From Candidatus Omnitrophota bacterium (GTDB taxonomy: Bacteria > Omnitrophota > Gorgyraeia > Zapsychrales > JANLHA01), in assembly GCA_023247795.1 (NCBI GenBank), contig JAHFFT010000001.1, positions 2,868 through 66,867 of the forward strand: a stretch of DNA of 64,000 bases, given 5' to 3'. Below, one piece after another: positions 7,420 through 41,705 of the stretch; positions within the stretch are counted from its first letter, which is position 1, and every line of letters begins with the position of its first letter. Made by a program: the position numbers and the translations under genes. The notes beneath the pieces are model-generated. The model was given only the letters and a program-made list of their open reading frames with translations, made no database searches and was not told where the DNA came from.

Positions 7420-7429
7420 ATCGACGTTG

Positions 7430-11400: not shown

Positions 11401-11489
11401 ACTCTCCTCCTATGTTAATCTAAATCTGTTAAATAACTGCTCAAAATAGTTATCCTTGACAACAATGATCGTACGGGAAGTTTTTGTTC

Positions 11490-24849: not shown

Positions 24850-25194
24850 ATGCCTTACCAGGCTTTCATCAATAAAATCCGGCAGTGGGACAATCAAGCT
24901 TCGAAATGGATCCTCAGACATTTCTATATGATCTTCTTCGAATTTGTTTTGGTTATTATTTTTTTCGTCTTTTTATTCAATACGTTTCACTCGATTGATC
25001 TAGCAAAGACTCCGAATCAAAATTTGACGGAGCAGCTGCTGAGCCAGCAGCTGCTCAACACCTCAATGATCACCCTTTTACTTCTGCTCAATTCTTTTTG
25101 GCTGCTTTATCTGTTCAATGGGATGAACCGCATCCGTCTCTTACTTAAGGACATTGGCTTTCAACTGCTGCGCCGCCGGCACCAAGATGGTTGA
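24850..25194 (+). CDS. Small hypothetical membrane protein (2 TM)
   Basis: AGGAG lies 5 nt upstream of the ATG. Hydrophobic segments MIFFEFVLVIIFFVFLF and ITLLLLLNSFWLLYLF. This is the only plus-strand gene in the region. Confidence 0.55.
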   Translation: MPYQAFINKIRQWDNQASKWILRHFYMIFFEFVLVIIFFVFLFNTFHSIDLAKTPNQNLTEQLLSQQLLNTSMITLLLLLNSFWLLYLFNGMNRIRLLLKDIGFQLLRRRHQDG

Positions 25195-25202
25195 CGTCCG
25201 CG

Positions 25203-26459
25203 TCAAAAATATTCCTGATAAAGTTCTTTAATCCGGCCCATCAAATCCGTCATCTTATTGGTTGAGCCCAACGTCGAAATCAATCGCGCCGCGTTCTGTT
25301 GAACTCCCATCTGTGCCAGACCAACGACCGAGGCATATTTAGCGGCATGATTCAAACGTTTGACGACGCTAGGGACTTTACCGATTTTGACATTCAAATT
25401 GATGGCCTCTTCCAACCGTTCTGCCAATCCAGGAAGAAGCGCTCCTCCGCCGATCATGATAACGCCGGCATTGATGGGTGGATTGAATTCTAAATGTTTG
25501 ATCAACTCATCAAGGGCCTGGATCCATTTGCCAACAACCGTTTCAATGGCCCGCGCAATCATGGCTTTCTTGATCGGAACGTATCCATCATCTCTTCTGA
25601 TCAAGATCTCTTCGTCCAAATTGCTATCGGAACTAACGGCAAAGGCGTACGATCTTTTCAAATCCTCAGCCAAATCAAAAGACAAATTCAACTCTTTGGC
25701 AATATTCACGGTGACATCTTCCCCACCCAAATTCACTTGATCCATAAAGCGCAATTGTCCCTCTTGAAAAACAAGCACTTCGGTCGTGCGGGTCCCAATA
25801 TCCAAAATGATGCAACCCTGGCGTTTATGGTAATCATCGAGAACGATCTGATTCGAAGCGAGCGGTGAATAATAAAAACGGGTTACATCAAACCCCGCTT
25901 CATTAACCGCGCTATTCAAATTCTTAATCAGTGTTGAGTTGGTCACAATCAGCAAGGAATGAAGTTCGATCTTACGGGCAAATAACCCCCGCGGATTCAA
26001 GGTCCTATTGGCGTCGTCCACCTTATATTGCTGCGGGAAATCATGCAACACGTCTTCATCCATGCCGATCCCTAACAGTCGTGCCTGATGCTGAACATGG
26101 ACGATATCGCGATTCCCGACCATTTTTGTTCCCCGGTCCACCAAAGGCACCACTGCGTTTCCCAGCCGCTTTTGCACCAGTTTTCCGCTGAATCCGACGT
26201 TGAGTTCTTTCAATTTGAGCCCGGTTTTATTCGTCAATCCCGCTATGGTGGCATGGATGCTCTCCGACAATTCACTCAAATCCGTGACCGCGCCGTCCTT
26301 AAACCCCGCGGTCTTTGTTTCATAAACACCGATCAGCACCGGACGAACCGGATCTCCGTTCTGAGCAACTGCCGGCACCCGCAGCAGACTGGCTTTGATC
26401 GTTTGGCCGCCCAAATCCAAACCACAATAAATTTTTTCTCCTATCAAACCTTTAAACAT
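25203..26459 (-). CDS. ftsA: Cell division protein FtsA
   Basis: Actin-like ATPase motifs GLDLGGQTIKA, ILDIGTRTTEV and MIGGGALLPGL. Positioned after ftsQ. Confidence 0.9.
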   Translation of the reverse strand: MFKGLIGEKIYCGLDLGGQTIKASLLRVPAVAQNGDPVRPVLIGVYETKTAGFKDGAVTDLSELSESIHATIAGLTNKTGLKLKELNVGFSGKLVQKRLGNAVVPLVDRGTKMVGNRDIVHVQHQARLLGIGMDEDVLHDFPQQYKVDDANRTLNPRGLFARKIELHSLLIVTNSTLIKNLNSAVNEAGFDVTRFYYSPLASNQIVLDDYHKRQGCIILDIGTRTTEVLVFQEGQLRFMDQVNLGGEDVTVNIAKELNLSFDLAEDLKRSYAFAVSSDSNLDEEILIRRDDGYVPIKKAMIARAIETVVGKWIQALDELIKHLEFNPPINAGVIMIGGGALLPGLAERLEEAINLNVKIGKVPSVVKRLNHAAKYASVVGLAQMGVQQNAARLISTLGSTNKMTDLMGRIKELYQEYF

Positions 26460-26505
26460 TTTCTATACCATCCCCGTTAAAATAAGCTTTCCTAAAAATC
26501 CAAAC

Positions 26506-27267
26506 TCAATGCTGGCTTAAGATCGGCTGTTTAAACCGCAGATCGATATAATTGATCTGATTCAAATCAAGGTTGCCCTGACTCAAAACCAAGGCCAGCT
26601 GTTGGAGTTTCGCTTCAACACGATCCCGATCCATAATCACCCTGACTTTATTGTCAAGGATCATCTGGATTTGCGATAAGCTTTCAATCTGAAAAGAAAC
26701 AATCTCAAATTTTTTAAGGTCTTCTTGCTCCCGCATCAACCGCATGATTCGCAAAGCAATTTCGATCTCTTTTGAATTCAGATGCTTACCCAAAACCGGC
26801 TGCTGCTCAAGTTTGACTCCATTGATGGTCGGCAGATCCGGATACCCCTTCGCATCAAAGGCGATCGCGTATCCCTGTTCATCGATCACCATGTCTTTGC
26901 CTCTGCTGGAAAAAACAGCGACCGGATCACGTCTTTTAGCAACGATATAAATTTTATCAGGGAACCGCCGGTAAACCTTAAGATCTTCCACGTTCGGGTA
27001 CTGCGTTTGCAGACGCCGATGGAGCTCCTTAAGATCCACGGAAAAAATATTCTTTCCCTCCAAGTAAGAAATTTGTTTGGGTTCAATGAATTGCAGCGAT
27101 GGCGCCAGCACAACCGCTTTGATTCTAAACATCTTGGCGTCTTTAAACGAGCGGACTGTACTTCGCGTTAGCGCCACGACCAAAAAAGCAAAAACCAAAA
27201 ACAGAATCAAAAACTTTAAAAACTTTGTTCCCAATGGAGCAGGCTTTTTATTTCCGCGTTTCGTCAT
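26506..27267 (-). CDS. ftsQ: Cell division protein FtsQ (POTRA domain)
   Basis: ATG 27267 gives an ATGA overlap with the murC-ddl stop. MTKRGNKKP... then TM FLKFLILFLVFAFLVVAL, followed by a POTRA-like region. The dcw position supports the call. Confidence 0.75.
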   Translation of the reverse strand: MTKRGNKKPAPLGTKFLKFLILFLVFAFLVVALTRSTVRSFKDAKMFRIKAVVLAPSLQFIEPKQISYLEGKNIFSVDLKELHRRLQTQYPNVEDLKVYRRFPDKIYIVAKRRDPVAVFSSRGKDMVIDEQGYAIAFDAKGYPDLPTINGVKLEQQPVLGKHLNSKEIEIALRIMRLMREQEDLKKFEIVSFQIESLSQIQMILDNKVRVIMDRDRVEAKLQQLALVLSQGNLDLNQINYIDLRFKQPILSQH

Positions 27268-29633
27268 AATAGGGCACTTAAATTTTGCAATACTTGCGTC
27301 CTTCTTTTGATGGCCAACCCAAGAATGGTCCAACACAGATCGTCAAAACTCAAACCTGCTTTTTGCGCGGCCATGGGCAAAAGGCTGGTCTCGGTGAAAC
27401 CCGGGATGGTATTGGCCTCCAAAAAATAACTTTGATTCTTTTCATCCAACATAAAGTCCATGCGGGCCAGATCCCTGGCTCCGATCATGGTGTAAATCGC
27501 GAGCGCTATCCTTTGCAGTTCCTGAGCTAATTCTGCCGGTAAATCCGCGGGTACCAGATATTCCGTGAGCCCTTTCTGATATTTGGCCTCGGAATCAAAA
27601 AATTCCCGTTTGGTCCTGATCTCGATCACCGGCAACGGTTCACCGTCGAGGATCCCAACCGTCACTTCCCGTCCCCGGATGTACTGTTCGACGATAACTT
27701 CATCGGCTAAGGCGGCGGCATCCTTCACAGCCTGATCATATTGTTCCGCGGTTCTCACAATGGCCACCCCAAAACTCGACCCTGCACATGCTGGCTTGAC
27801 CACCAACGGAAAAGCCATGCGGCACGCATCCAAAGAGTTCAAATCACGCACTGCGATCCGTTGATAAGCCGCCACGTTGATGTGTTGGCCGCTTACAAAA
27901 TCCTGCATTTTCCCTTTATGAAAAGCCAGCCGGCTTGGCCCTACGCCGGAACCGGTATAGACAAACTTCCCTTCTTCCAAAATCGTCTGCAACTGGCCGT
28001 CCTCGCCAAAATCGCCGTGCAGCGCGTTGAAAACAACATCGACCTCCTTTTCAAAAAGCAGGGATAAAATTGTTTTCCGATCGGTCGAAGTCAAATCAAA
28101 TGCGGAGACCCTGGCACCTTTTCTTTTCAAGGCTTCATAAATCGCTTTGCCTGATTTCAAAGAAACATCCCTTTCCGGAGAAACCCCGCCCATCACGACG
28201 GCAATATGGTCGGTCTGCTTGGAAGGACTGATCAACGACGCGGTCACCTGATCCGGCGATCTTCTTTCCTTAAGCCGCTGCACAAGGATATCTGATATCT
28301 GTGTGATGTCCCCCGCGCCCAGAGTCAGCACCAGATCACCGGGCTGAACGATTTTGAGAATGTGTTCGACAATCTGTTCTTTGCGTAAATAAATCGCTTC
28401 AGAAAAATCCCTGGCTTTCAGCCGGTCACAGATGTCCTGAGCGCTGATCTGATTATTATTTTCTTCACTCGCGGCATAGATATCGGTCACGATCAAGCGG
28501 TCCGTCAACATGAGACTACTGATGAATTCTTCCAACAAAAATTTCGTTCTGGAAAAACGATGCGGTTGAAAAATGGTGATGATCCGCTTTTTATTCAAAC
28601 TGCGCGCCGTCTTCAGCGTCTGTATGATCTCCGTCGGATGATGTCCGTAATCATCCACAACGCTGATGTCATCGACTTCCCCCTTCCATTGGAATCGGCG
28701 TTTGACGCCCTGGTAAATCTGCAGCGACTGCTGCATCATCGAAAAAGACAACTCCAATTCTAACCCGACCGCGATCGCGGCCAGAGAGTTAAGGATGTTA
28801 TGTTCTCCGGGAACGGCTAAGATCACCGGGCCCAACAAGCGGCCCTGCAAATAACAATCATATTGAGAATGGCCTCCACCGTCGGCGAGTTTTTGAATGT
28901 TGCGCGCCTGCAATTCATTATGATCTAAGAAACCATAGGTGAGGAACCGACGTGATGAGCGTTTCACAATACTCTTTAACGTTTCCTGATCTCCCCAGGC
29001 AATGACCTTTCCCTGCGGCTGGGTCTGCTGGATGAACTGTTGATACGCCCCGACGATATGCTGCAGGCTGCGATAATAATCCAGATGTTCCATGTCCAAA
29101 TTGGTGACCACCGAAAGGAAGGGATAAAAGCATAAAAACGTCCCATCACTTTCATCGATCTCAGCGACAAAATGTTTACCGCGGCCAACCCGGGCGTGAT
29201 TTTCGGTTCCGCGGATGATCCCGCCGACCGCCGTTGAAGGATCCAGCCCCGCGTGGATGAGCAGATTGGCAATCATTGCCGTCGTGGTGGTTTTCCCGTG
29301 CGCCCCGGCGATCGTTATCCCAATATATGTTTGCATCAATTCGGCAAGGCATTCCGCTCGTCTTAAAATCCGTAAATCCCTTCGTTTGGCCTCCTGCAAT
29401 TCCGGATTATCAAGGGAGACCGCCGAGGAATAAACAACCACCGGCGCCCCGTCGAGATTAGCGGCAGCATGACCGATGGCGATCCTGGCACCTTGTTCAC
29501 GCAGTTTCCGCACCATTTTATTTTCAGTAGTATCAGAGCCGCTCACCTGACAGCCCTGGCGCAGCATGAGCGAGGCAATCGTGCCGACCCCAATCCCGCC
29601 AATTCCGATGAAATGATATTTTTTCTCCATCAC
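27264..29633 (-). CDS. murC-ddl: Bifunctional UDP-N-acetylmuramate--L-alanine ligase / D-alanine--D-alanine ligase (MurC-Ddl fusion)
   Basis: MurC half: HFIGIGGIGVGTIA, GAHGKTTTTAMIA. From about aa 480 the Ddl half: IAVVMGGVSPERDVSLKSG, an ATP-grasp body, EANTIPGFTETSLLP. A single 789-aa ORF. Confidence 0.9.
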   Translation of the reverse strand: MMEKKYHFIGIGGIGVGTIASLMLRQGCQVSGSDTTENKMVRKLREQGARIAIGHAAANLDGAPVVVYSSAVSLDNPELQEAKRRDLRILRRAECLAELMQTYIGITIAGAHGKTTTTAMIANLLIHAGLDPSTAVGGIIRGTENHARVGRGKHFVAEIDESDGTFLCFYPFLSVVTNLDMEHLDYYRSLQHIVGAYQQFIQQTQPQGKVIAWGDQETLKSIVKRSSRRFLTYGFLDHNELQARNIQKLADGGGHSQYDCYLQGRLLGPVILAVPGEHNILNSLAAIAVGLELELSFSMMQQSLQIYQGVKRRFQWKGEVDDISVVDDYGHHPTEIIQTLKTARSLNKKRIITIFQPHRFSRTKFLLEEFISSLMLTDRLIVTDIYAASEENNNQISAQDICDRLKARDFSEAIYLRKEQIVEHILKIVQPGDLVLTLGAGDITQISDILVQRLKERRSPDQVTASLISPSKQTDHIAVVMGGVSPERDVSLKSGKAIYEALKRKGARVSAFDLTSTDRKTILSLLFEKEVDVVFNALHGDFGEDGQLQTILEEGKFVYTGSGVGPSRLAFHKGKMQDFVSGQHINVAAYQRIAVRDLNSLDACRMAFPLVVKPACAGSSFGVAIVRTAEQYDQAVKDAAALADEVIVEQYIRGREVTVGILDGEPLPVIEIRTKREFFDSEAKYQKGLTEYLVPADLPAELAQELQRIALAIYTMIGARDLARMDFMLDEKNQSYFLEANTIPGFTETSLLPMAAQKAGLSFDDLCWTILGLAIKRRTQVLQNLSALL

Positions 29634-29640
29634 GTTCCTT

Positions 29641-30447
29641 TCATTCTTCTTTCAATAAAAAATCATACCAGGCGGAATTCAAATCGTTAAGCGATTTTAT
29701 TTTTAAATAAACACTGTCCAAAGCCGAATCCATGGTCAGTCCCTCATTCAATTTTTGACAAAAACGAAGAAACCGCGCATTATCCAATTGATTGATGATA
29801 AAAGAAACCGCGCTGGCCGATTCCGCGTAATACAAGTCAACGATCTCTTCATTTGTCGTGTCGTCCAATTTCATCAACGCCAATTGCGATAAAGGAATGA
29901 ATCGATTTTCTCTGATCGCTTGTCTGACTTGGGCCTGCGCCGATGCTCGTCTGGCCTTTTCCTGAAAACACGCCACACCTTCATCCAGCCATAAAGGGAA
30001 ATCGGTGTCCTCGCCGGCAAACTCGCGAAAAATGATATGTCCCAATTCATGCGGTAATATGGTATCAAAAAAACCGCTGTCCTGAGGAAAGGTGGCGATC
30101 ACCTTTTGCCGAATGTCCGCCGCACCGTGCGACCAATGCGTCATGTTGGTCGATTGAACATACTTTTCTTGCGAGTCATAAATATAAATTTTCGCGCGGT
30201 TGTTGTACGACCAGCCTTTGTAACGAGTGAACCCTAAGTCGGCCGTAATGCTCTCATAATATTGTTCGGCGGATTCAGCAACCGTTTTCGCGAAATCTTT
30301 TGGCGTCTTCTGATAATAAACCGAAAAATGATCCGTGCGCTCTTCCTGCCATTGGTCTTCATCAGCCTGAACGCCGATGCTAAAAATTCCAAACAAAAAC
30401 ACACCCAGTAAACAAAAAACGAAATGGCTCAGGCGACTTTTCTTCAT
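29641..30447 (-). CDS. Secreted HExxH (gluzincin-like) metallopeptidase-family protein
   Basis: ATG 30447 forms an ATGA overlap with the murG stop. Signal peptide MKKSRLSHFVFCLLGVFLFGIFSIGVQA. LPHELGHIIFREF...WLDEGVACFQE gives HExxH plus a downstream Glu. Confidence 0.6.
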   Translation of the reverse strand: MKKSRLSHFVFCLLGVFLFGIFSIGVQADEDQWQEERTDHFSVYYQKTPKDFAKTVAESAEQYYESITADLGFTRYKGWSYNNRAKIYIYDSQEKYVQSTNMTHWSHGAADIRQKVIATFPQDSGFFDTILPHELGHIIFREFAGEDTDFPLWLDEGVACFQEKARRASAQAQVRQAIRENRFIPLSQLALMKLDDTTNEEIVDLYYAESASAVSFIINQLDNARFLRFCQKLNEGLTMDSALDSVYLKIKSLNDLNSAWYDFLLKEE

Positions 30448-31517
30448 AAAAATGCAACCGCCGCTTGGGCGATCCTTTGGGCGGCATTCGGAAAAAATAA
30501 TTTCTCCTCCACCTTTTTCCAATCTCCACCACCCACTGGAATTTGCGTGAGAGCTATGACAGCATCGGCCAATGATCTCGCGTTCAACTCCCTTTCTTCC
30601 AATTTTCGAAACATCGGGAATTCAGCCAATTGCCCAGCATTTTCATTTTGATGGCCGTCAGCATGCGGATAAGGAATCATAATGGCCTTTTTTTGCAGGG
30701 TTACAATTTCAGTAATGGTAACCGCGCCTGCGCGACAGATCACCAGATCGGCGCAGGAATAGAGTTTCATGATTTCCTTTGAGAAAGGTTGAACATAGCA
30801 GGGAATCGAGAACGCCTGATACCTCGCCTTGACCCATTCATAATCACTTGGCCCCGTCAAATGGATCACCTGGATCGCTCGCTGATCTTTCACAAGCGAG
30901 ATCGAGTCCAAAAACACTTGATTGACGGTGCGGCTGCCCTGCGATCCCCCAAAAACCAAAATGGTCAAACGCCCGGTCTCAAGCTGAAACCTCTCTTGCA
31001 ATTCCTCACGCGACAAAGTCCGGTCCGGCGTTTGGCACGGGCAACCGGTCAAGACTGTTTTTCCCGTCGGAAAATAAGCCTCACTGGCTTTAAAACTGAT
31101 CGCGACCTTTCTGGCAAAAGGGATTAAACAGCAATTGGCCTTTCCAGGACGAACATTCTGCTCATGCAGCAAAACCGGAATCCCCGAGAAACTCCCCATA
31201 AACACAAAAGGGAACGAAGCATAACTGCCAAATCCGATGATGCGGTCCGCCTTGATGCAGCGCAAAAATTCCTTTGCCTGAAATAATGACCGGATGAGGA
31301 GATATCCGCATCGCCCAAGTCCAAAAAGCGAACGGCCAGACCACCCACTCACCACCGTCTCAAAAACACGAAAATTTTTTTCTTGAATGACCGGCTTGAA
31401 AGCACCGAACTTTCCGGCAAAAATCACTTCGTGTCCCGCCGCTTTCAACTCTTCGGCAACTCGCAGGGCCGGATAAATATGCCCGCCGCTTCCGCCGGTA
31501 GCTAATAGCATTTTCAT
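30444..31517 (-). CDS. murG: Undecaprenyldiphospho-muramoylpentapeptide beta-N-acetylglucosaminyltransferase
   Basis: LATGGSGGHIYPAL G-loop. GGSQGS. dcw position. Confidence 0.9.
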   Translation of the reverse strand: MKMLLATGGSGGHIYPALRVAEELKAAGHEVIFAGKFGAFKPVIQEKNFRVFETVVSGWSGRSLFGLGRCGYLLIRSLFQAKEFLRCIKADRIIGFGSYASFPFVFMGSFSGIPVLLHEQNVRPGKANCCLIPFARKVAISFKASEAYFPTGKTVLTGCPCQTPDRTLSREELQERFQLETGRLTILVFGGSQGSRTVNQVFLDSISLVKDQRAIQVIHLTGPSDYEWVKARYQAFSIPCYVQPFSKEIMKLYSCADLVICRAGAVTITEIVTLQKKAIMIPYPHADGHQNENAGQLAEFPMFRKLEERELNARSLADAVIALTQIPVGGGDWKKVEEKLFFPNAAQRIAQAAVAFL

Positions 31518-31518
31518 T

Positions 31519-32613
31519 TTAAGTTTGCGAATCCTGAACGCGCGAAATGTTCAATAACAAGGCCACCGCCAAAAGATTGACGATCAACGCCGAGCCTCCA
31601 TAACTGATAAAAGGAAGCGGCAGGCCTTTGGTCGGCAAAGCGCCGATACTGACTCCGACATTGACCATGGCCTGAAGACCGATCATAAAAACAATCCCCA
31701 TCGCGAGAAAATAGCCGAAGGGATCCATCGTGTTTTTGACAATCCTGGTCCCTTGCCAAATGAAACAGACAAAAAGGACAATGACCGCGAAGGCCCCCAA
31801 GAACCCCAATTCTTCACCAATGATGGATAAAATGAAATCGGTATGCGCCGCTGGAAGATAAAATAATTTTTGCACACTCTTGCCCAGGCCGACGCCAAAT
31901 ATCCCGCCGGAACCTAAAGCAATCTGCGATTGAATCAACTGAAAACCTGCTCCCTGGCTGTCGCTCCAAGGATCTAAAAAAATCATGATCCGCCGCCATC
32001 GATAAGGCACCATCATGACCAAAAAATAAAACGCCGGGATTACGGCCAAGGCTATGCCAAACAAAATTTCCAGACGCATTCCGGCCGTAAACAATAAAAC
32101 AAAGGCGATACTGGCAATCACCAGAGCACTTCCCAAATCCGGCTGCTTAAGAATCAAAAGACAGGTCACCCCCACAACCAGGCACAAAGGGATCACCCCT
32201 TCCCGCATTTGCTGTATTTGCTGCTGTTTCCTCGCCAAATAATCCGCGGCGTAAAGCAGAATCGCCAATTTAGCAAATTCCGAAGGTTGGATATAAAACG
32301 ACCCGATATGAAACCACCGACGAGCGCCAAAGCTGAGTTTGCCAATACCGGGGATGAGCACAACGACCAAAAGAAAGATCGATAACAACATGAGCGGTTT
32401 GGCCAAATGTCGAAGGTCACGATAATCGAAACCCAATGACAAAAAAGCCAACAACAACCCGACCAACAAAAAAAGCAAATGCCGTTTGAGAAAATAAAGA
32501 TTATCACCAAGTTCATGCATGGCATAGACGCCACTTGAACTGTAGATCATAATCACCCCTAAAAAAATGAGGATCGAAACAATGAAAACAATGGATATTC
32601 GCAGATGACGCAT
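31519..32613 (-). CDS. ftsW: Peptidoglycan glycosyltransferase FtsW (SEDS family)
   Basis: 10-TM SEDS pattern. FQPSEFAK-like IQPSEFAKLAIL. HTDFIL. PTKGLPLPFISYGGS. Confidence 0.9.
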   Translation of the reverse strand: MRHLRISIVFIVSILIFLGVIMIYSSSGVYAMHELGDNLYFLKRHLLFLLVGLLLAFLSLGFDYRDLRHLAKPLMLLSIFLLVVVLIPGIGKLSFGARRWFHIGSFYIQPSEFAKLAILLYAADYLARKQQQIQQMREGVIPLCLVVGVTCLLILKQPDLGSALVIASIAFVLLFTAGMRLEILFGIALAVIPAFYFLVMMVPYRWRRIMIFLDPWSDSQGAGFQLIQSQIALGSGGIFGVGLGKSVQKLFYLPAAHTDFILSIIGEELGFLGAFAVIVLFVCFIWQGTRIVKNTMDPFGYFLAMGIVFMIGLQAMVNVGVSIGALPTKGLPLPFISYGGSALIVNLLAVALLLNISRVQDSQT

Positions 32614-32626
32614 AAAAAGGATTAAC

Positions 32627-33949
32627 TCACTTTGATTTTTTTAAATCCTTCGATGATGCTTCGCATAGTCCACCCTGTTCAAACTTTTCTTTCAACATTT
32701 CAACCAGCTGTTTGAAACGCGAACCGCGCTCCTCAAAATTTTTAAACATGTCATAACTCGCGCACATCGGACTCAACAAAATGCAATCACCGGCCTGCGA
32801 ATTTTGATAGGCGGTCGCCAGCGCGTCCTCAAGCGTTTCACATTCCCGGACCGGAACCAGATGATGAAAACACTGCTTGATCTTTTCTTTCGCCTCGCCG
32901 ATGACGATCATCGTCTTGACTTTTTGCCGCACGATGTCCTGAATGGTTGAAAAATCAATGTTCTTGTCTCTCCCACCACAAATGAGCAAGACCGGGCATG
33001 AGATGTTCGCTAAGGCCCAGGCCGTTGCTTGCGCCGTGGTCGATTTGGAATCGTTGATAAACTCAACCCCTCGCAAAAGACCTAATTTCTCCATACGATG
33101 TTCCACCCCGCGGAATTCCGAAAAAATTTTGCGATAAATGTCTGGAGCAATATTTAAAACCCGACAAACTTGGGCCACCGCCCATTGGTTCTGGTTCAAA
33201 CCACTTTCCTTTCGTTGCTGCTCCTCGCTGTTAAAATAAAAGACCTTCGGGGTCAATCCCTGGATCCGCTGACTTAACGGATCACCCGCATTGATCACCG
33301 CAAAATCGGCTTGGGACTGATTCATAAACATCCGCTGTTTGATTTGAAAATATTCTTCCAAATTCGCGTGACGATCAAGATGATTTTGCGAGACGTTCGT
33401 CAAGACCGCGATCTTGGGACAAAATGCGCTAATCAACTCCAACTGAAAAGAACTGACTTCTAAGACGATAAAATCAATCCCACGAAGATCTAAGACCGCC
33501 TCGGAAAACGGCCAGCCGATGTTGCCGCATAAATGAACATGATAGCCGGCTTCGGTCAGAACCCTCGCCGTCAAATGCGACACGGTTGTTTTACCATTGC
33601 TGCCGGTGATGGCGATGATCGGGACCGGACAAAAGCGGTAAGCGAACTCAATTTCCGACCAAACCGTAACCCCTTTGCCCCTCGCCCACTTGACCGCGTC
33701 ACAGTTGAGATTGATCCCTGGACTCACAATCAAAAAATCGCTCTGCTCGATAAAATCCTTGGTATGGCCGCCGGTTTCTAAACGGATTTTATTTTGCTCA
33801 ATCCACTCGCGGAGAGCCGGAGTCAACTGGTCTTCAACGGCCTTTTCAGAAACCTTGACCTTGGCCCCTTTTGCCAGGCCCAAGGCCGCCGCAGCCTGAC
33901 CACTTTTCCCCGCGCCTAAAACCGTAACGATTTTTCCGGTCAAATCCAT
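32627..33949 (-). CDS. murD: UDP-N-acetylmuramoylalanine--D-glutamate ligase
   Basis: ATG 33949 shares one nt with the mraY stop (TGATG). VLGAGKSGQAAA. ITGSNGKTT P-loop. Confidence 0.9.
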   Translation of the reverse strand: MDLTGKIVTVLGAGKSGQAAAALGLAKGAKVKVSEKAVEDQLTPALREWIEQNKIRLETGGHTKDFIEQSDFLIVSPGINLNCDAVKWARGKGVTVWSEIEFAYRFCPVPIIAITGSNGKTTVSHLTARVLTEAGYHVHLCGNIGWPFSEAVLDLRGIDFIVLEVSSFQLELISAFCPKIAVLTNVSQNHLDRHANLEEYFQIKQRMFMNQSQADFAVINAGDPLSQRIQGLTPKVFYFNSEEQQRKESGLNQNQWAVAQVCRVLNIAPDIYRKIFSEFRGVEHRMEKLGLLRGVEFINDSKSTTAQATAWALANISCPVLLICGGRDKNIDFSTIQDIVRQKVKTMIVIGEAKEKIKQCFHHLVPVRECETLEDALATAYQNSQAGDCILLSPMCASYDMFKNFEERGSRFKQLVEMLKEKFEQGGLCEASSKDLKKSK

Positions 33950-35034
33950 CAACGAATTTTTAAAGTCATCAAGGTTAATAGAGCGAAAATGATCCCCAAG
34001 ATCCAAAATCGAATGATGATCTTTGACTCATGCCAACCACTTAACTGCAGGTGATGATGCAGCGGGGAGACTTTGAAAATCCTTTTCCGTCGGGTACGGA
34101 CCGAAATCACTTGCAAAATGACCGAGAGCGCTTCGATCACAAAGACACCGCCCAAAATCACCATGAGCAATTCTTTCTTGATCAACACCGCGATCACCCC
34201 GATCGTTCCGCCGAGGGCCAAAGATCCGGTATCTCCCATGAATATCGTTGCTGGGTGAGCGTTGAACCACAGGAAACCCAGACTAGCACCAAGGATCGCG
34301 GCACAAAAAATCGTGAGTTCCCCGGCCTCGGCCACATAGGGCAGAAAAAGGTATTCGCTGAAACGGCTGTGTCCGGTGATATAACAGAGTATCGCCAACG
34401 TGGCACTGACAATCAAAACACTGCCAATGGCTAATCCATCCAGCCCGTCGGTCAAATTCACAGCGTTGGAACTGCCGATGACAACCAGTGCGGCAAACGG
34501 TATGTAAAGGACTCCTAAATCGATCAAATGTTTGAAGAACGGCATGTCCAGGCGGCTGGATAAGGAAGGATGAAAATAAACAAAGGCCCCAATAAAACAT
34601 CCTAAAAAAACCTGCCAAAGCATTTTTGTTCTTGGCCGCAATCCCCGATGAGGCTTAAGCCCTTTCAATTTTGTATAATCATCAATCGCCCCTAAAACGC
34701 TCAAGTAAAGACAGGTGAATAGCGTCAACAAAATCAATCGGTTGCTCAAATCGGCCCATAGCAAAACGGAAAGAACAATGCTACCGATGATAAAGACCCC
34801 GCCCATCGTCGGGGTCCCCTCCTTACTGACTTGCAAATGATCCAAAGCCGGACAATCCTCCCGCTTGGCGCGCTCGCGAATTCTAAGGGCGATGAAATAA
34901 CGGGTAAAGATCGGGGCAAAATAAATACAGGACGCGAAAGTTGTCACCGCTGCCATGGCCGCGCGGAACGTGATATATTTGAAAATGTTTAAAAGAGGAA
35001 AAAATTCACGCAATTCCGCCAAAAGATAAAACAT
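33949..35034 (-). CDS. mraY: Phospho-N-acetylmuramoyl-pentapeptide transferase
   Basis: KEGTPTMGG, NAVNLTDGLDGLA, FMGDTGSLALGG and APLHHH-like SPLHHH motifs. Confidence 0.95.
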   Translation of the reverse strand: MFYLLAELREFFPLLNIFKYITFRAAMAAVTTFASCIYFAPIFTRYFIALRIRERAKREDCPALDHLQVSKEGTPTMGGVFIIGSIVLSVLLWADLSNRLILLTLFTCLYLSVLGAIDDYTKLKGLKPHRGLRPRTKMLWQVFLGCFIGAFVYFHPSLSSRLDMPFFKHLIDLGVLYIPFAALVVIGSSNAVNLTDGLDGLAIGSVLIVSATLAILCYITGHSRFSEYLFLPYVAEAGELTIFCAAILGASLGFLWFNAHPATIFMGDTGSLALGGTIGVIAVLIKKELLMVILGGVFVIEALSVILQVISVRTRRKRIFKVSPLHHHLQLSGWHESKIIIRFWILGIIFALLTLMTLKIR

Positions 35035-35075
35035 GTTCGCCCCTTTGTTGCTGTTTGACGCCGCTTGTTATAACG

Positions 35076-36452
35076 TCAATCTTTTGAAAAATGTTTGGTT
35101 AAAAATACAACTGTTTTTTCCATCTGCATCGCCCGCGAACCCTTGACCAGCAAGACATCCTCGGGCTGGCAGACCTTGGCCAATCTTCGATGCAACTGCA
35201 ATCGGTCCGAAAAATGCTCAACCAGAACAGCTGGGTTTCGACGGACCGCTCCCTCGCTAATCAAACGTGAATTTGTACCAAATGTCAAGATTTGACGGAT
35301 CCCTAAATCCGCGGCCAACGTTCCCATGGCCAGATGCGAAGGCCCGCTCCATTCTCCCAACTCCAGCATATCCGCCGCCACCAAAATCCGCTTTTTTCTC
35401 GTCGGCCAGGCTGCCAATGTCTTCAATGCACTGCGAAAAGAAACAGGATTGGCATTATACACATCATCAATGACCATGACACCACCAATGGATTTGATCG
35501 TCTGCCGGGAACAATCGAAATCAAAAGTCTTAAGTTGCCGGCGGATGGTCTGATACCCGACTCGAAATACCCGCCCGCAGGAAATGGCGGCTAAGGCATT
35601 GTACACGTTGGCCTCGACCGGAGTGTTCAACTCAAATTTTTGTCCGTCGATTCTAAATTGGATTTGCTGTCCCCGACCAAGCAAAACCTTCTCTGCTCTA
35701 AAATCCGCGTCGCCCTTGATCCCGTAAGTCAAGATCCGGTCTTTCCATACGCGGCTGAGCAGTTTCCTTAACCAAGGATCATCGCTGTTGATCAAAATCT
35801 TTCCTCCTTTATCCATCCCTTTCAGCACTTGAATTTTTTCCTGAAAAACTTTGGCCGGACTCTTGAGTTTTTCTAAATGTGCCTCGCCAATGTTGGTGAG
35901 AACGGTAAAAGTGGGATGAACGATCGACGTCAGCCAGGCGATATCCCCAGGCTGATTGGTCCCGAGTTCCAGAACAGCCATTTGATGCTGCTTGGTCAAT
36001 TGGAACAATGTCAAAGGAACGCCGATAAAATTGTTAAACGAGCCGGTATTTTTCAAAACCCGGTAACGGGCCGCCAAGACCTGCGCTACCAATTCTTTGG
36101 TTGTGGTTTTACCCGCCGATCCAGTAACGGCAATCACCGGTATGGAAAATTTCCGACGGTGCGCGGCTGCCAACCGTCCCAAAGCCTTGGTGGTGTCGTC
36201 CACGTTGATGACGCTTACGTCACGCGGGACCGATCGCACCGATTTGGCAACAACAACGGCTCCCGCTCCTTGACGTACCGCTGCTCGAACAAATTGATGT
36301 CCATCGAGCCGATGACCTTGGATGGCAAAAAAAATATCACCGGTCTTGACCGAACGCGAATCAATGCTGACCCGATGAAACTCTTGATTTTTTCGCGACT
36401 GCGTGATCATTCCCTTAACCGCCCTTGCAATTTCCTTAACGGTTCCAATCAT
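35076..36452 (-). CDS. murF: UDP-N-acetylmuramoyl-tripeptide--D-alanyl-D-alanine ligase
   Basis: VTGSAGKTTTKE P-loop. The ORF-track start at 36560 overlaps murE. The ATG at 36452 (MIGTVKEIA...) is more plausible, but the start is uncertain. Confidence 0.85.
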   Translation of the reverse strand: MIGTVKEIARAVKGMITQSRKNQEFHRVSIDSRSVKTGDIFFAIQGHRLDGHQFVRAAVRQGAGAVVVAKSVRSVPRDVSVINVDDTTKALGRLAAAHRRKFSIPVIAVTGSAGKTTTKELVAQVLAARYRVLKNTGSFNNFIGVPLTLFQLTKQHQMAVLELGTNQPGDIAWLTSIVHPTFTVLTNIGEAHLEKLKSPAKVFQEKIQVLKGMDKGGKILINSDDPWLRKLLSRVWKDRILTYGIKGDADFRAEKVLLGRGQQIQFRIDGQKFELNTPVEANVYNALAAISCGRVFRVGYQTIRRQLKTFDFDCSRQTIKSIGGVMVIDDVYNANPVSFRSALKTLAAWPTRKKRILVAADMLELGEWSGPSHLAMGTLAADLGIRQILTFGTNSRLISEGAVRRNPAVLVEHFSDRLQLHRRLAKVCQPEDVLLVKGSRAMQMEKTVVFLTKHFSKD

Positions 36453-36486
36453 CTTTACCCCACCCCCGAAAACAAACTTTTGCAAG

Positions 36487-37977
36487 TCATTTGACCGCCA
36501 GTCCACGAGACGTTTTCGAATTCCCCAACAGATAATCACGGATGACCTTGCGATCATCAAAAGGAATCGTCTGATTTTTTAAAATCTGATAATCTTCATG
36601 CCCCTTCCCCGCCACCAATACAATGTCGTCCTTCTGGGCCATCGCCAAGGCCTGTTTGATCGCTTCTCGACGATCATAAATGATTTCATAATTGTTCCGA
36701 CTGAACCCTTTGCTGATCATCTCGATGATCAACTGCGGATCTTCTCCCCGAGGGTTATCATTGGTGACAAACGAAAAATCTGCCCACTTTCCAGCGACCG
36801 CTCCCATTTTCGAACGCTTGCCCTTATCGCGATCTCCTCCACAGCCAAAAACCAAAATGATCCGCCTGCTTTTCATCTGCTGAAGACATTCAAGAACGCG
36901 GAACAGAGCGTCTTCGGTGTGGGCGTAATCAACAAAGATCTGATAATTCTGACCACAAACCACGCGCTCCAATCGCCCTGGAACTCCCGCCAAATTCTCC
37001 AGACCAGCCTGAATATCTTCTTTAGCGATGCCCTCTCCCAAAGCCACGGCCGTCGCAGCCAAAATGTTGTAGACATTATGAATCCCAATGAGCGGCGTGC
37101 GGACTCGAAATTCCTCATCGGCCGTTAGCACCACAAAAGTCGATGCGTTGACATCCATCTTAATCTCCTGGGCCATCACATCACTCTGCTGGTTGATCCC
37201 GTAAGTGACGGCCGGCACATCCGTCATTTTGACCAACTTTTTACCATAAACGTCGTCGCGGTTGATGACCACCCGTTCTTTATCCGTGGGTTTGGTAAAA
37301 AGTTTGGCCTTGGCCTGAAAATAACTTTCATGGTCCTTGTGATAATCCAAATGATCTTGAGTAAGATTGGTAAAAACGCAATTTCGAAAATGGATTCCGG
37401 CCACCCGATTTTGCTCTAAGGCATGCGAAGAGACTTCCATAACGCAATATTCGCTACCGGCTTCAAGCATCTGTGAAAGAAAGGAATAATTTTCAACCAA
37501 CCCAGGAGTTGTGTTTTTTGAAACTACCGTGCGCTGAGCGAAACGGTGATTCACCGTTCCAATGACTCCGGTCCGCTTATGGGCGGCCTGAAAAATGGCC
37601 TCCAAAAGATACGTGATCGTTGTTTTGCCGTTGGTTCCGGTCACCCCAATGACTTTCAATTGGCGGCTGGGATTTTTATAGAAAATATTAAGAAGTCGAG
37701 CAAGTTCCTGGCAAGGGTTTTCACGATCAATCCACAGAACACCGTTGGAAGTAGCTAGGCGTTCATCATCGCTGCTTTTGACGATCACTTTTGCCCCCTT
37801 CGCGACGGCCTGCGGAATGAATTTCTTTCCATGTTCTTTGACCCCCGGCAAGGCCACAAAAATGCTGCCATGCTCGACTTGCCGGGAATCTGATGTGATG
37901 GAACTCACGTCAAAATTTTGCCACTCGCCGGAAATCGTCACATCCGCAATATCTTTAAAAAGCTCAATCAATTTCAT
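36487..37977 (-). CDS. murE: UDP-N-acetylmuramoyl-L-alanyl-D-glutamate--2,6-diaminopimelate ligase
   Basis: GVTGTNGKTT P-loop. DYAHTEDAL. The DNPR motif (TNDNPRGEDP) is consistent with meso-DAP specificity. Confidence 0.9.
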   Translation of the reverse strand: MKLIELFKDIADVTISGEWQNFDVSSITSDSRQVEHGSIFVALPGVKEHGKKFIPQAVAKGAKVIVKSSDDERLATSNGVLWIDRENPCQELARLLNIFYKNPSRQLKVIGVTGTNGKTTITYLLEAIFQAAHKRTGVIGTVNHRFAQRTVVSKNTTPGLVENYSFLSQMLEAGSEYCVMEVSSHALEQNRVAGIHFRNCVFTNLTQDHLDYHKDHESYFQAKAKLFTKPTDKERVVINRDDVYGKKLVKMTDVPAVTYGINQQSDVMAQEIKMDVNASTFVVLTADEEFRVRTPLIGIHNVYNILAATAVALGEGIAKEDIQAGLENLAGVPGRLERVVCGQNYQIFVDYAHTEDALFRVLECLQQMKSRRIILVFGCGGDRDKGKRSKMGAVAGKWADFSFVTNDNPRGEDPQLIIEMISKGFSRNNYEIIYDRREAIKQALAMAQKDDIVLVAGKGHEDYQILKNQTIPFDDRKVIRDYLLGNSKTSRGLAVK

Positions 37978-37982
37978 AGACT

Positions 37983-39668
37983 CTACATCCCCGCGTCCAA
38001 CGCGTTAAGATACCGGAGCGAATCAGAAATCACCTCACGAAAAACCGGAGCGGAAACCGTTCCGCCAAAATGATTCGGATGAGGCTCATCAAAAACCACA
38101 ACCGCCGCCAATCGCGGATTCTCGACCGGCGCAAATCCGAAAAAAGTCGCGTAAAATTTGGAATTGGAATATCCGCCGCCCTCGGGCTTTTGCGCGGTTC
38201 CGGTTTTACCGGCGACGTTGACTCCTTTAATTTGGGCCAACTTACCCGTACCCTGCTCAACCACCTTTTGTAAAATGGCTTTAACTCGTCGGGCCGTATC
38301 AACGCTCATCACTTGATCAACCACTTTCGGATCCGTTGCCTTGATCAATTCCTCATGAACATCTTTGATGTATTTTACCACAAAGGGTCGCATGTACACC
38401 CCGTCATTTGCAATAGCAGAAATGGCACTGACCAATTGCAACGGCGTCACCGCGACTTCCTGGCCAATGGGAATCGCCCCGATCGAGGCTTTCGACCATT
38501 GCGAAGGTGGCTTTAAAATTCCCGGGACTTCCCCTTGGACATCAATGCCGGTTGTTTCGCCAAAATGAAACCGTTTAGCGTATTTGTAAACCGTTTCTAA
38601 TCCAATTTTTTGCGCCACTTTCACCGTGCCGATATTGCTGGATTGTTCGATGACTTCACTGAAGGTCAACCAGCCATGAGCATGATGGTCGTGCAGCATG
38701 TGATTGGCCACGCGGTACTGCCCATTTTCGCAAAAAAATTTGTCGGTTTCTTGGACCGCCTGCTCTTCCAAGGCCGCGGTCAACGTCACAATCTTAAAGA
38801 CCGACCCTGGCTCATAGATATAGGAAACCGCCCGATTCGTTCGGTCTTCCGCATGACTATCATTATAAGATTCCAAATTGTACGTCGGGAGATTGGCCAA
38901 GGCAAGGATCTCGCCGGTCCTCGGGTCCATCACAATGATGCTAGCGGACTTGGCCCGATGTGTCTTAAAGGCCTTTTCTAAAGCCCGCTCAGCGATATAT
39001 TGAATCGTTTCATCAATGGTCAAAACCAAACTGAAACCATCCTTAGGCGGGATAAATCCCTTATCAAGCATCAATTCCTGCTGCCGGGCGTCCCGCAGGA
39101 TCATCATCCAACCAAACTCTCCGCGAAGGTCCTTGTCATACGCGAGTTCCAATCCCTCCAACCCCAGATTATCAACTCCCGCGAACCCGATCAAGTGCGC
39201 GGCCAAATTCTGATTAGGATAATATCTTTTGCTTTCCTTAATGAAACCCACTCCCTTAAGATTCAATTTCTTGATCTGTTCCGCCAAATCCAATGGCAGT
39301 TTACGCACCAACCAGACAAAATATTTTTTCCGATCCAATTGATTTTCTAAATAACTTCTATTGAGACCTAGCATGTCACTGAGTTTTTTCGCGGCGATCT
39401 GCTTATCCTGACTGCTCATCTGTCGAGGATTCGCGTACAAGGATTGAACGCTGAGATTAATGGCCAGCGGGCGCATCTGCCGGTCAAAGACCGTTCCGCG
39501 CACCGGTTCCAGTTTTACATAATGATTTTGCTGTTGCTGGGCGAGTTCCGCCAGATGCGCGGATCGAAAGACCTGAATGAGGACCAGTTGGACAGAAAAA
39601 AGAAAGAGGCAAACGATGAGAAAAAGAAAAACCAAACTAAACCGCAGCGCACGTTTTCTTAAGTACAC
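37983..39668 (-). CDS. ftsI: Penicillin-binding protein 3 (FtsI, class B transpeptidase)
   Basis: N-terminal TM. SxxK (GSVFKIVT), SSN (SSNIG) and KTGT (AGKTGTAQ). Confidence 0.9.
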   Translation of the reverse strand: MYLRKRALRFSLVFLFLIVCLFLFSVQLVLIQVFRSAHLAELAQQQQNHYVKLEPVRGTVFDRQMRPLAINLSVQSLYANPRQMSSQDKQIAAKKLSDMLGLNRSYLENQLDRKKYFVWLVRKLPLDLAEQIKKLNLKGVGFIKESKRYYPNQNLAAHLIGFAGVDNLGLEGLELAYDKDLRGEFGWMMILRDARQQELMLDKGFIPPKDGFSLVLTIDETIQYIAERALEKAFKTHRAKSASIIVMDPRTGEILALANLPTYNLESYNDSHAEDRTNRAVSYIYEPGSVFKIVTLTAALEEQAVQETDKFFCENGQYRVANHMLHDHHAHGWLTFSEVIEQSSNIGTVKVAQKIGLETVYKYAKRFHFGETTGIDVQGEVPGILKPPSQWSKASIGAIPIGQEVAVTPLQLVSAISAIANDGVYMRPFVVKYIKDVHEELIKATDPKVVDQVMSVDTARRVKAILQKVVEQGTGKLAQIKGVNVAGKTGTAQKPEGGGYSNSKFYATFFGFAPVENPRLAAVVVFDEPHPNHFGGTVSAPVFREVISDSLRYLNALDAGM

Positions 39669-39703
39669 TTGATCCTAACCAACGTTGTTCACAACCCATT
39701 TGG

Positions 39704-40114
39704 TTATTGAAATTTCTTCCAGGGATTCAAACTTTTCTTTTGACTCTCGGCCCGCGCTTCCGACAGGGTTAGCAAAGACAGCAGTCGTTGCAAAAAACTA
39801 TTGTCTGAAGAATGAACATTCGTGACACCATTGTCGAGATCATCAGATCGTTTCGCCAACCGCACGGTCTGCTGTTGATCACGGAACCGCAAATCGGAAT
39901 CCTTGGCCAATAACGTATCACCTAAATGATGCGCTGATTTGAGCCGGAGGATTCGATAATTGATCATCGTATTGTACTCTTTCAGATTTAAAAAAATCCG
40001 TTCCTTCTGCTTCCCTTGATAGGCCAGCTCATAGATGTTCATCTGCATATAAATGTAGACCAAGGCAAGGAACGTAAAAAACAGCATGCATTTGAGTGAT
40101 CTGACTAACGGCAT
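39704..40114 (-). CDS. ftsL: Small bitopic division protein in the FtsL position
   Basis: ATG 40114 lies 10 nt after the rsmH stop. Single TM CMLFFTFLALVYIYMQM followed by a helical region. The call rests mainly on synteny. Confidence 0.5.
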   Translation of the reverse strand: MPLVRSLKCMLFFTFLALVYIYMQMNIYELAYQGKQKERIFLNLKEYNTMINYRILRLKSAHHLGDTLLAKDSDLRFRDQQQTVRLAKRSDDLDNGVTNVHSSDNSFLQRLLSLLTLSEARAESQKKSLNPWKKFQ

Positions 40115-40124
40115 ATCTTCATCC

Positions 40125-41057
40125 TTAAACTTTCTCCACGACCCGCAATCGAGCGCTGCGGGCACGGGCATTTTTTTGAACCTCAACTTCTTGAGGACGA
40201 ATCGGCTTTTTTGTAATCAAACTGACCGTTTCCGTTCGGGCTAAATGACGAAATTTATGTTTCACAATCCGATCTTCCAAAGAATGAAAAGCAATCACCA
40301 CCAAACGCGCTTTGGGTTTCAGGACCTGAACGCATTTTTCCAAAGCATCGGACAAGGATTCCAATTCATGATTCACGGCAATTCGAAAAGCCTGGAAAGT
40401 ACGCGTGGCAGGATGGATCTTCTGCTGCCAATACGAACGCGGAACGGCTTGCAAAATCGTTTCGCAAAGCTCCTGCGTTGTTTGCAATGGTTTCTTCGAA
40501 CGTGCGGTGACCAAATATTTGGCAATCCGATGAGAGAATCGCTCCTCACCATATTCGCGCAAAATTTGGGCCAACTCACGTTCCGATAAAGAATTGATCA
40601 AATCGTAAGCGCAGACCTGACCGTCCTGATCCATGCGCATATCCAACGGCCCTTCGTCCTTAAAACTGAACCCGCGCTGAGGATTATCCAGCTGAAAACT
40701 CGATATCCCTAGATCCATGAGGATCCCGTCGACCTTTTGAACTCCGCAATCCGCAAGGACTTGATCGATATGACGAAAATCCGCGTGCACGAAACGCATC
40801 CGATCAGCAAAATTCTTCAAGCGCTCTTTCGCAAATTTCAAGGAACTCTCATCGCGGTCAATGCCAATGATCCGCCCCTGCCCGCCCAGCCTCTGGACGA
40901 AAAGCTCACTATGCCCGCCCAGCCCTAGGGTCGCGTCAACCACGCAAGCGTCCGCGAAAAACGTCAAATAGCGCGAAACCTCTTCGGCCATAACCGGGAT
41001 ATGGTTGATTGGATCATTCATTAAATTTTGCGAATAATCTAGTGCTAAAGAATACAT
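40125..41057 (-). CDS. rsmH: 16S rRNA (cytosine1402-N4)-methyltransferase
   Basis: HIPVMAEEV and VDATLGLGGHS motifs. ATG 41057 is preceded by GGGGAGG (7-nt spacing). The alternative ATG 41021 lacks an SD. The ORF-track N-terminus (to 41162) reads through intergenic hairpins. Confidence 0.85.
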   Translation of the reverse strand: MYSLALDYSQNLMNDPINHIPVMAEEVSRYLTFFADACVVDATLGLGGHSELFVQRLGGQGRIIGIDRDESSLKFAKERLKNFADRMRFVHADFRHIDQVLADCGVQKVDGILMDLGISSFQLDNPQRGFSFKDEGPLDMRMDQDGQVCAYDLINSLSERELAQILREYGEERFSHRIAKYLVTARSKKPLQTTQELCETILQAVPRSYWQQKIHPATRTFQAFRIAVNHELESLSDALEKCVQVLKPKARLVVIAFHSLEDRIVKHKFRHLARTETVSLITKKPIRPQEVEVQKNARARSARLRVVEKV

Positions 41058-41064
41058 GTATGAA

Positions 41065-41176
41065 CCTCCCCGCAGCAAGCTGCGAGGTATCAGAGTTGTA
41101 TCCTGAATTCGAGAAACCCATAGTTTCTCGAGCTCTTCCTTCAGATGGTAACCCCGGAGCAAGCTCCGAGGAATTC
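41065..41176. repeat. Three hairpin palindromes in the mraZ-rsmH spacer
   Basis: 41065..41087 CCTCCCCGCAGCAAGCTGCGAGG. 41109..41131 TCGAGAAAC-CCATA-GTTTCTCGA. 41152..41176 CCCCGGAGCAAGCTCCGAGGAATTC. Confidence 0.8.
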
Positions 41177-41255
41177 TCTCGATTAAAGTGAATTGCTAAG
41201 TTTTTTAATACCCCTGCCGCTAAAAAAATCCTTCGACGGAAAATAAACTCCGCTA

Positions 41256-41705
41256 TCAGCTCTGCGGATTGCCTTGAACCAAATTCTCCGCAATCTGCTC
41301 AAAAGATTCCTGACAATTTGCGTAAAAATTTTCCCAGGTGGTCTTATCCCAAATCTCGATTCGATTTGATATCCCAATGATGATGGTGTCCCGTTTGATA
41401 TTGGCGTAATTTTTCAAAAATTGTGGAATGATAAATCGGCCCTGCTTATCCGGCAACACCTCAACGGCCCCGGAAAAAAATAACCGATTGAAACTGCGCG
41501 ATTCCTGTTTGGTAAAAGGCATTGTTTTAAATTTTTGTTCTTGCGTCCGCCACTCCCCCTCGGCGAAAACAAACAAGCAACGGTCCAAACCTCTGGTTAC
41601 AAAGAACTTTTCAATACCGCATTCTTGGCACACTTCGCGAAACCGTGCCGGAAGGATGATGCGACCTTTACGGTCAATCCCATGAATGTATTCGCCGTAA
41701 AACAT
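41256..41705 (-). CDS. mraZ: Transcriptional regulator MraZ
   Basis: MFYGEYIHGIDRKGRIILPARFRE, with a second DxxGR repeat (PDKQGRFIIPQFL). Confidence 0.9.
   Translation of the reverse strand: MFYGEYIHGIDRKGRIILPARFREVCQECGIEKFFVTRGLDRCLFVFAEGEWRTQEQKFKTMPFTKQESRSFNRLFFSGAVEVLPDKQGRFIIPQFLKNYANIKRDTIIIGISNRIEIWDKTTWENFYANCQESFEQIAENLVQGNPQS

Follow-up and report, generated by a model that had tools for sequence, protein, structure and literature searches.

A predicted exported zinc peptidase encoded between murG and murC within the cell-wall and division cluster of Candidatus Omnitrophota

Why is the gene of a putative exported zinc peptidase placed in the middle of an operon for cell wall synthesis and division? 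The question was raised by a stretch of 64,000 nucleotides (nt) from Candidatus Omnitrophota (contig JAHFFT010000001.1, positions 2,868 to 66,867), and this whole stretch is hereafter called the window. [quoted passage not shown] In the window, the cluster holds an additional gene, here called X, which lies between murG and a fused murC-ddl gene. X was an integral dcw cistron between murG and murC in Candidatus Omnitrophota. The gene and its surroundings are given below in coordinates of the window.

25203..41705, minus strand: dcw cluster in the order mraZ-mraW-(ftsL-like)-ftsI-murE-murF-mraY-murD-ftsW-murG-X-murC/ddl-ftsQ-ftsA (open reading frame map)
30444..31517, minus strand: murG, directly upstream of X (Pfam Glyco_transf_28 and Glyco_tran_28_C)
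30444..30447, minus strand: ATGA, in which the stop codon of murG and the start codon of X overlap (ATG 30447-30445, murG TGA 30446-30444)
29641..30447 including the stop, minus strand: gene X, predicted exported Peptidase_MA_2 gluzincin of 268 amino acids (translation, Pfam, AlphaFold2 model, fold matches)
29634..29640, minus strand: spacer of 7 nt, AAGGAAC, from the X stop to the GTG of murC-ddl (sequence)
27264..29633, minus strand: murC-ddl fusion of 789 amino acids, directly downstream of X (Pfam Mur_ligase N/M/C and Dala_Dala_lig N/C)

Translation of 29641-30447 on the minus strand gave 268 codons followed by TGA. The first-pass annotation had placed a 268-amino-acid protein with a signal peptide between murG and murC-ddl; the translation and the Pfam assignments of the neighbours bore this out, and the strand was added. 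In the window, mraZ, ftsW, murG, murC-ddl, ftsQ and ftsA were assigned by Pfam, and mraW, ftsI, murE, murF, mraY and murD were named from the size and order of their reading frames and the Pfam-annotated synteny of related loci.

The related loci reached via X (L001-L085) comprised one genome locus, four loci on three long contigs and 80 metagenome loci, a sample biased to the clade of the window. Synteny was read by tblastn with the window proteins, and only where the contig extended far enough. In all of these loci with sufficient contig, murG was directly upstream and murC directly downstream of X, and the order was ftsW-murG-X-murC-ddl-ftsQ-ftsA. The murG-X-murC arrangement was also found at three loci (L086, L088 and L089) with distant members of the family, namely P0150 (38% identity), P0262 (25%) and P0273 (named Candidatus Omnitrophica). 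A reverse test gave the same picture: the three long contigs picked via MurG, outside the list of X matches, all had a PF13485 gene between murG and murC (3/3). For 12 further MurG matches the longest contig was equally long as for the X matches, which lends indirect support to the synteny. Conservation of the gene in the dcw clusters of relatives, proposed earlier as a check, was thus observed: every related locus that was examined had X between murG and murC. Its description as lying outside the canonical dcw set was also sound: X is a same-strand dcw cistron and the orthologue of no usual dcw gene (mraZ/W, ftsL/I/W/Q/A/Z, murB-G, mraY, ddl). At one of the three loci picked via MurG (L093, 2213-3887), an AbiEii-family gene and an unannotated partner of 264 amino acids were inserted between ftsW and murG, and the murG-X-murC block was intact.

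The junctions of X were tight on both sides. The stop codon of X (TGA, 29643-29641) is separated from murC-ddl by 7 nt for a start at GTG 29633 or by 10 nt for a start at ATG 29630, and the spacing of the AAGGA Shine-Dalgarno sequence in the spacer suits the ATG better than the GTG. The ATGA overlap with murG and the distance of 7 nt that had been claimed were both seen in the sequence, the latter for the GTG start. Among the related loci, 50 of 74 had a 4-nt overlap between murG and X, and 72 of the 74 had an overlap or a gap of at most 5 nt. For the X stop and the murC start, 40 of 59 loci had an overlap of 4 or 8 nt. Co-transcription and translational coupling of X with its neighbours are well-founded inferences. 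The further claim that X is co-expressed stoichiometrically with the cell-wall genes was an over-reading, as overlapping stop and start codons suggest coupling and do not set ratios. The best promoter-like site of the cluster lies at 41789-41761, upstream of mraZ. The counts in the scan of the cluster for promoter- and terminator-like motifs were at chance level; hence, the scan says nothing on transcription units. At 30456-30474 (minus strand), inside the 3' end of murG and shortly ahead of the ATG of X, a terminator-like hairpin with a T-run was seen; the frequency of such sites in the region is that expected by chance, and the hairpin could influence coupling or mean nothing.

The position of X had been described as roughly where murB often sits. 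murB was absent from the 64-kb window and has left the cluster in the lineage of the window. In nine loci from deeper lineages (L043, L058, L070, L071, L073, L082, L086, L088 and L089), murB was found between murC and ddl alongside X, in the order murG-X-murC-murB-ddl. X as the occupant of the murB slot was ruled out by these loci, and because they carry both genes, X is an addition to the cluster and not a replacement of murB.

The conservation of X was compared with that of its neighbours. Across the X loci, the tblastn identities were 45-52% for X, 42-59% for MurC, 33-46% for MurG, 28-49% for FtsQ and 34-52% for FtsA; that is, X was conserved similarly to MurC and above MurG, FtsQ and FtsA. 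The ratio of non-synonymous to synonymous substitution rates (dN/dS) against a 93%-identical relative (L001) was 0.19 for X and 0.18 for murG. X is no chance reading frame because it has a Pfam match to PF13485 (E value 1.7e-15), 963 homologues and this dN/dS of 0.19. The guanine-plus-cytosine content of X (0.44, and 0.49 at third codon positions) was inside the range of the neighbouring genes. A recent insertion or a foreign gene was ruled out by this neighbour-like composition, together with a position that was kept at 25% identity. In the same comparison with L001, dS was 0.17 in X and 0.45 in the adjacent murG, a 2.6-fold difference that may reflect a recombination boundary or a chimeric assembly.

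The family of protein X was evaluated via profile searches. PF13485 (Peptidase_MA_2) was the only Pfam family at E<=1, with 57.8 bits against a gathering cut-off of 32.4, and residues 80-263 of X matched model positions 16-198 of 201 (183/201 covered). No model of the NCBIfam scan reached its cut-off. A word-indexed search of 5.8 billion proteins gave the 963 homologues; the best 120 of them were all about 260 amino acids long with 46-55% identity, except for the 93%-identical relative, and where named they belonged to Candidatus Omnitrophota/Omnitrophica and were called "peptidase MA family metallohydrolase" or "hypothetical protein". The same precomputed PF13485 domain was present in all close homologues. 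In an exhaustive HMMER search, the representative clusters numbered 236 for a cut-off of E<=1e-30, 1,822 for E<=1e-10 and 7,293 for E<=1e-3; the distant members P0150, P0262 and P0273 came from this search. Conservation was read from two alignments, one of 54 homologues (about 50% identity) and one of 13 sequences that reached 25% identity. The features of the predicted active site are as follows.

30124..30135, minus strand: WSHG motif, residues 105-108 (predicted beta-strand 108-111, upstream of the active-site helix)
30037..30051, minus strand: HELGH, residues 133-137, with the predicted two zinc ligands and catalytic base among H133, E134 and H137 (invariant; predicted helix 126-144)
29959..29991, minus strand: WLDEGVACFQE, residues 153-163, with E156 as the predicted third zinc ligand (E156, G157, A159 and E163 invariant)
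29827..29829, minus strand: Y207, candidate transition-state-stabilising tyrosine (invariant in both alignments)

The invariant residues were W105, H133, E134, H137, E156, Q162, E163, K164, Y207 and C230 in the alignment of 54 sequences, and H40, F41, W79, S106, H133, E134, H137, W153, E156, G157, A159, E163, Y207 and F226 in the set of 13. The HExxH-x18-E spacing was kept in 53 of the 54 homologues, X included. In the WSHG motif, W105 was invariant and S106 and G108 were nearly invariant in the larger alignment, and S106 was invariant in the smaller. This motif is located roughly where the M1 enzymes have GXMEN, which was found in none of the 54 homologues, X included. Sequence searches of the PDB gave one weak match only, the Deinococcus M1 peptidase 6a8z (E 0.32 and 1.3). 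In its weak HMMER alignment, HELGH stood opposite HELAH and WLDEG opposite WLSEG, and Y207 was matched to the Tyr in "AYFRGA", which we take to be the catalytic Tyr of M1 enzymes.

The AlphaFold2 model of X, built from the 54-sequence alignment, had a predicted local distance difference test score of 89 and a predicted template modelling score of 0.82. The N-terminal half was mixed beta/alpha, followed by the active-site helix (126-144) and the Glu helix (152-161, which carries E156), and the C-terminal half was helical. A Foldseek search of the PDB with this model gave M9 collagenase peptidase domains first (E ~1e-6, template modelling score ~0.6) and then M1 aminopeptidases; M30 was also found. 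In the model, HExxH and the Glu ligand are thus on successive helices in a thermolysin-like fold of two subdomains, as in the gluzincins (clan MA, subclan E). By this model, X consists of a thermolysin-like gluzincin catalytic domain that stands alone; its active-site signature is of the M1 kind, without the anchor of the aminopeptidases. The gluzincin-like arrangement of HELGH and WLDEGVACFQE, which the first-pass annotation had noticed, was confirmed at residues 133-137 and 153-163 and is supported by PF13485 and the confident model; the zincin fold, whose absence would have spoken against it, was found. Membership of X in the M1 aminopeptidases was ruled out by the missing GXMEN, the lack of a PF01433 match at E<=1 and the single domain.

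X is very probably an active enzyme, as judged from the sequences and the model, since H133, E134, H137, E156 and Y207 are invariant to 25% identity. In the predicted site, H133, H137 and E156 would bind zinc, E134 would act as the general base, and Y207 would stabilise the transition state. Degenerate peptidase folds are known as divisome regulators, such as EnvC and NlpD of E. coli for amidases (PMC4083426), and X might likewise have been a catalytically dead fold that serves as a scaffold or regulator. The five invariant residues are the opposite of what degenerate regulators have, and this explanation is extremely improbable; a dead pseudo-enzyme was ruled out by the invariant active-site residues in both alignments.

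The export of X was judged by eye and with simple rules.

30364..30447, minus strand: predicted Sec signal peptide, residues 1-28, with MKKSR, a hydrophobic stretch and a cleavage site between VQA and DED (sequence)

In nearly all homologues with complete N-termini (54 aligned), the protein begins with K/R, continues with 10-15 hydrophobic residues and has an AxA-like site a short distance ahead of the conserved W33. By the same simple rules, the signal peptide claimed for X has a Sec-type layout, as in nearly all of these homologues. The sequence of X showed no lipobox, no further transmembrane segment and no extra domain. Longer relatives were scanned for domain fusions; no peptidoglycan-binding domain was found, and there was one thioredoxin/AhpC-TSA fusion and one zinc-ribbon N-terminus. 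The former is P0208 (409 amino acids), which is fused to a thioredoxin/AhpC-TSA (redoxin) domain; as a guess, this domain would suit a periplasmic location if it were a periplasmic TlpA-type oxidoreductase. At L087 (2473-3489), another member, outside dcw, had an AhpC-TSA/Redoxin gene two genes away. The redoxin fusion and neighbour may indicate a redox-linked periplasmic role of the non-dcw branch.

These observations were assembled into a proposed function. X would be a zinc metallopeptidase of about 27 kDa that is exported via Sec, soluble in the periplasm and made of a single thermolysin-like gluzincin domain. It would cut internally rather than trim N-termini; an endopeptidase is the more likely because X has no GXMEN anchor of the M1 type for the amino terminus. 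Because X is an integral dcw cistron with overlapping or near-abutting junctions, its synthesis would accompany any expression of the lipid II and divisome genes. From the gene context, its site of action may be the periplasm and its substrate a component of the cell envelope with a tie to wall growth or division. The prime candidates would be the stem peptides or cross-links of peptidoglycan, which would be trimmed or split; otherwise, an envelope or divisome protein would be cut in its periplasmic part. The favoured reading as a whole, a periplasmic zinc endopeptidase that is co-expressed with the wall-synthesis genes and acts on an envelope substrate, was given a probability of roughly 55%. 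Its envelope- or division-linked role, taken by itself and suggested by the gene context, is likewise somewhat favoured.

Several observations weigh against this reading. Homologues of 28-32% identity were found outside the dcw cluster at three loci (L087, L090 and L091), where they adjoin Rnf genes, an alpha/beta hydrolase or sugar-nucleotide genes. Because homologues of similar divergence sit outside dcw, a PF13485-type fold is not bound to cell-wall genes. At long range, X diverged faster (25%) than FtsW (46%) or MurC (40%). Mature X is acidic, with an isoelectric point of 4.8 (family median 5.9), and its hydrophobic stretch is long (about 21 residues) and could be an uncleaved membrane anchor. 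X matched none of M23 LytM, M15 LAS, Amidase_3, NlpC/P60 and S11 in Pfam and NCBIfam, and no LysM, SPOR or PG_binding domain or informative fusion was found in X or the relatives scanned. To our knowledge, no HExxH gluzincin is established as a peptidoglycan peptidase.

The homologues in unrelated neighbourhoods bear on a second explanation, in which X is a general periplasmic peptidase for nutrient peptides or housekeeping that was fixed early between murG and murC, has a function unrelated to the wall, and was retained since overlapping reading frames hinder its removal. Such a peptidase would agree with these family members of similar divergence and with the width of the family (7,293 representative clusters at E<=1e-3). 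Omnitrophota have been described as host-dependent or predatory with a reduced metabolism (bioRxiv 10.64898/2026.06.07.730766), and for this reason exported peptidases could serve feeding. However, the position of X was kept across lineages in which X has only 25% identity, and X stays while the cluster otherwise changes by the loss of murB, the fusion of murC and ddl and the insertion of the AbiEii cassette. Its sequence conservation also equals that of MurC, and a housekeeping peptidase is accordingly judged quite improbable.

The nature of the substrate leads to a third explanation, in which X is a periplasmic protease that acts on proteins and not on peptidoglycan. HExxH proteases of the BepA type process or quality-control envelope proteins, and X could do the same for divisome or envelope proteins; the periplasmic domains of FtsQ, FtsL and FtsI and outer-membrane proteins or lipoproteins are candidate targets. 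The nearest structural relatives (M9 collagenases, M30 lugdulysin and M1 aminopeptidases) all cleave peptides or proteins, X is without a peptidoglycan-binding module, and its mature form is acidic. Export and operon context fit this explanation as well as they fit peptidoglycan. On the other side, no partner or substrate can be named, and X is a bare catalytic domain without the TPR, PDZ or other protein-recognition domain frequent in such proteases. A protease of this kind is possible but doubtful.

Within the favoured reading of a periplasmic endopeptidase with an envelope substrate, the peptidoglycan branch was weighed separately. Here, X would trim or cleave the stem peptides of newly made peptidoglycan or of lipid II; elsewhere, this is the work of LytM, LAS, amidase or PBP5-type enzymes. 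A peptidoglycan peptide as the direct substrate is a tentative suggestion from the gene context, on the unlikely side. Somewhat more doubtful still is the wider proposal that X is the first peptidoglycan peptidase of the gluzincin (HExxH) type and, in Omnitrophota, an operon-encoded core enzyme, specific to the phylum, that matures the wall or splits the septum. The first-pass annotation had considered a periplasmic peptidoglycan or division-site peptidase. The exported peptidase was supported by the fold and the predicted signal peptide; the substrate is a suggestion from gene context, with no match to a peptidoglycan-binding or hydrolase domain.

A full-text literature search on PF13485 gave one incidental mention and no functional study. 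In papers on division genes of the Planctomycetes-Verrucomicrobia-Chlamydiae (PVC) group and Omnitrophota and on the genomes of Omnitrophota, the dcw and peptidoglycan genes are reported as intact, and no description of the X peptidase or its dcw position was found in them. The new element is a dcw operon with an extra conserved cistron for a predicted exported gluzincin, whereas the PF13485 family was already catalogued. A putative exported zinc peptidase of an unstudied family is thus held between murG and murC across deep Omnitrophota branches, and X is a candidate lineage-specific cell-envelope or division factor. If X does act on the wall or the divisome, it would be a new enzyme class in the division toolkit and the first functional anchor for PF13485, with its thousands of members.

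Other features of the window were also recorded. In the murC-ddl fusion, the Mur_ligase domains span residues 5-441 and the Ddl domains 528-770; murC and ddl are separate genes in almost all relatives. MurC-Ddl chimeras have been reported chiefly from Chlamydiae and Firmicutes (PMC10214165). ftsZ did not follow ftsA (25203) in the window or the related loci, and the tubulin signature GGGTG[ST]G was absent from every frame of the 64-kb window. At the usual place of ftsZ, a reading frame of 114 amino acids (24850-25194, plus strand) is convergent with ftsA; it has two hydrophobic segments and no Pfam match, and its place and orientation were kept in at least 29 related loci, where the identity was 43-57%. 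Downstream of ftsA lies a membrane protein of 557 amino acids with a PMT_2 glycosyltransferase region and TPR repeats (23102-24775, minus strand). A reading frame of 2,093 amino acids without a Pfam match (16019-22300, minus strand) is followed by a Gly/Gln/Pro-rich low-complexity one of 366 amino acids with a signal-like N-terminus (14678-15778, minus strand). Very long proteins are known in Omnitrophota (bioRxiv 10.64898/2026.06.07.730766). Further on, at 8896-12611 (minus strand), are two more large TPR proteins and a porin that is alginate-export-like. At 4971-8889 (minus strand), consecutive genes encode a small PqqD-like protein, a pair of ATP-grasp proteins (ATPgrasp_Ter-like) and a pyridoxal-phosphate-dependent Orn/DAP/Arg decarboxylase; this layout resembles a peptide-modification cluster of the kind for ribosomally synthesised and post-translationally modified peptides.

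X was finally compared with known systems. It scored above the gathering threshold of PF13485 (the NCBI "peptidase MA family metallohydrolase") over nearly the whole model, and this family is defined by sequence alone. The M1 aminopeptidases (PepN, ERAP1, LTA4 hydrolase and 6a8z) have HExxH-x18-E in common with X, whereas their GXMEN is absent from X (0/54) and PF01433, without a match at E<=1 in X, is sub-threshold in some relatives. Moreover, X is exported, by prediction, and consists of one domain of 240 residues; the N-terminal beta domain and the C-terminal helical domain of these enzymes are both lacking in X. The M9 collagenase peptidase domains (Vibrio/Grimontia 7wss and ColG/ColH/ColT) are alike in fold only, at 10-16% identity; X has no Pfam Peptidase_M9 match at E<=1 and no activator or accessory domains, and the Glu ligand of the M9 enzymes lies further from HExxH. 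M30 hyicolysin/lugdulysin (7bb8) has 15% identity to X, no kinship detected at the sequence level and no tie to cell-wall genes. The chlamydial "NlpD" (CPn0902), from a bacterium of the PVC group, is an exported, division-associated carboxypeptidase that acts on lipid II and, according to its description, has a LysM domain and no LytM domain (PMC4083426). Its domain make-up is unrelated to that of X, and the likeness is an analogy of role only. Its gene presumably also lies among the chlamydial mur and fts genes. Compared with the canonical dcw cluster, the window keeps all the standard genes, mraZ through ftsA, in their normal order and tightly packed on a single strand; it differs in that murB and ftsZ are missing from the cluster, murC and ddl are fused, and the cistron X is added between murG and murC.

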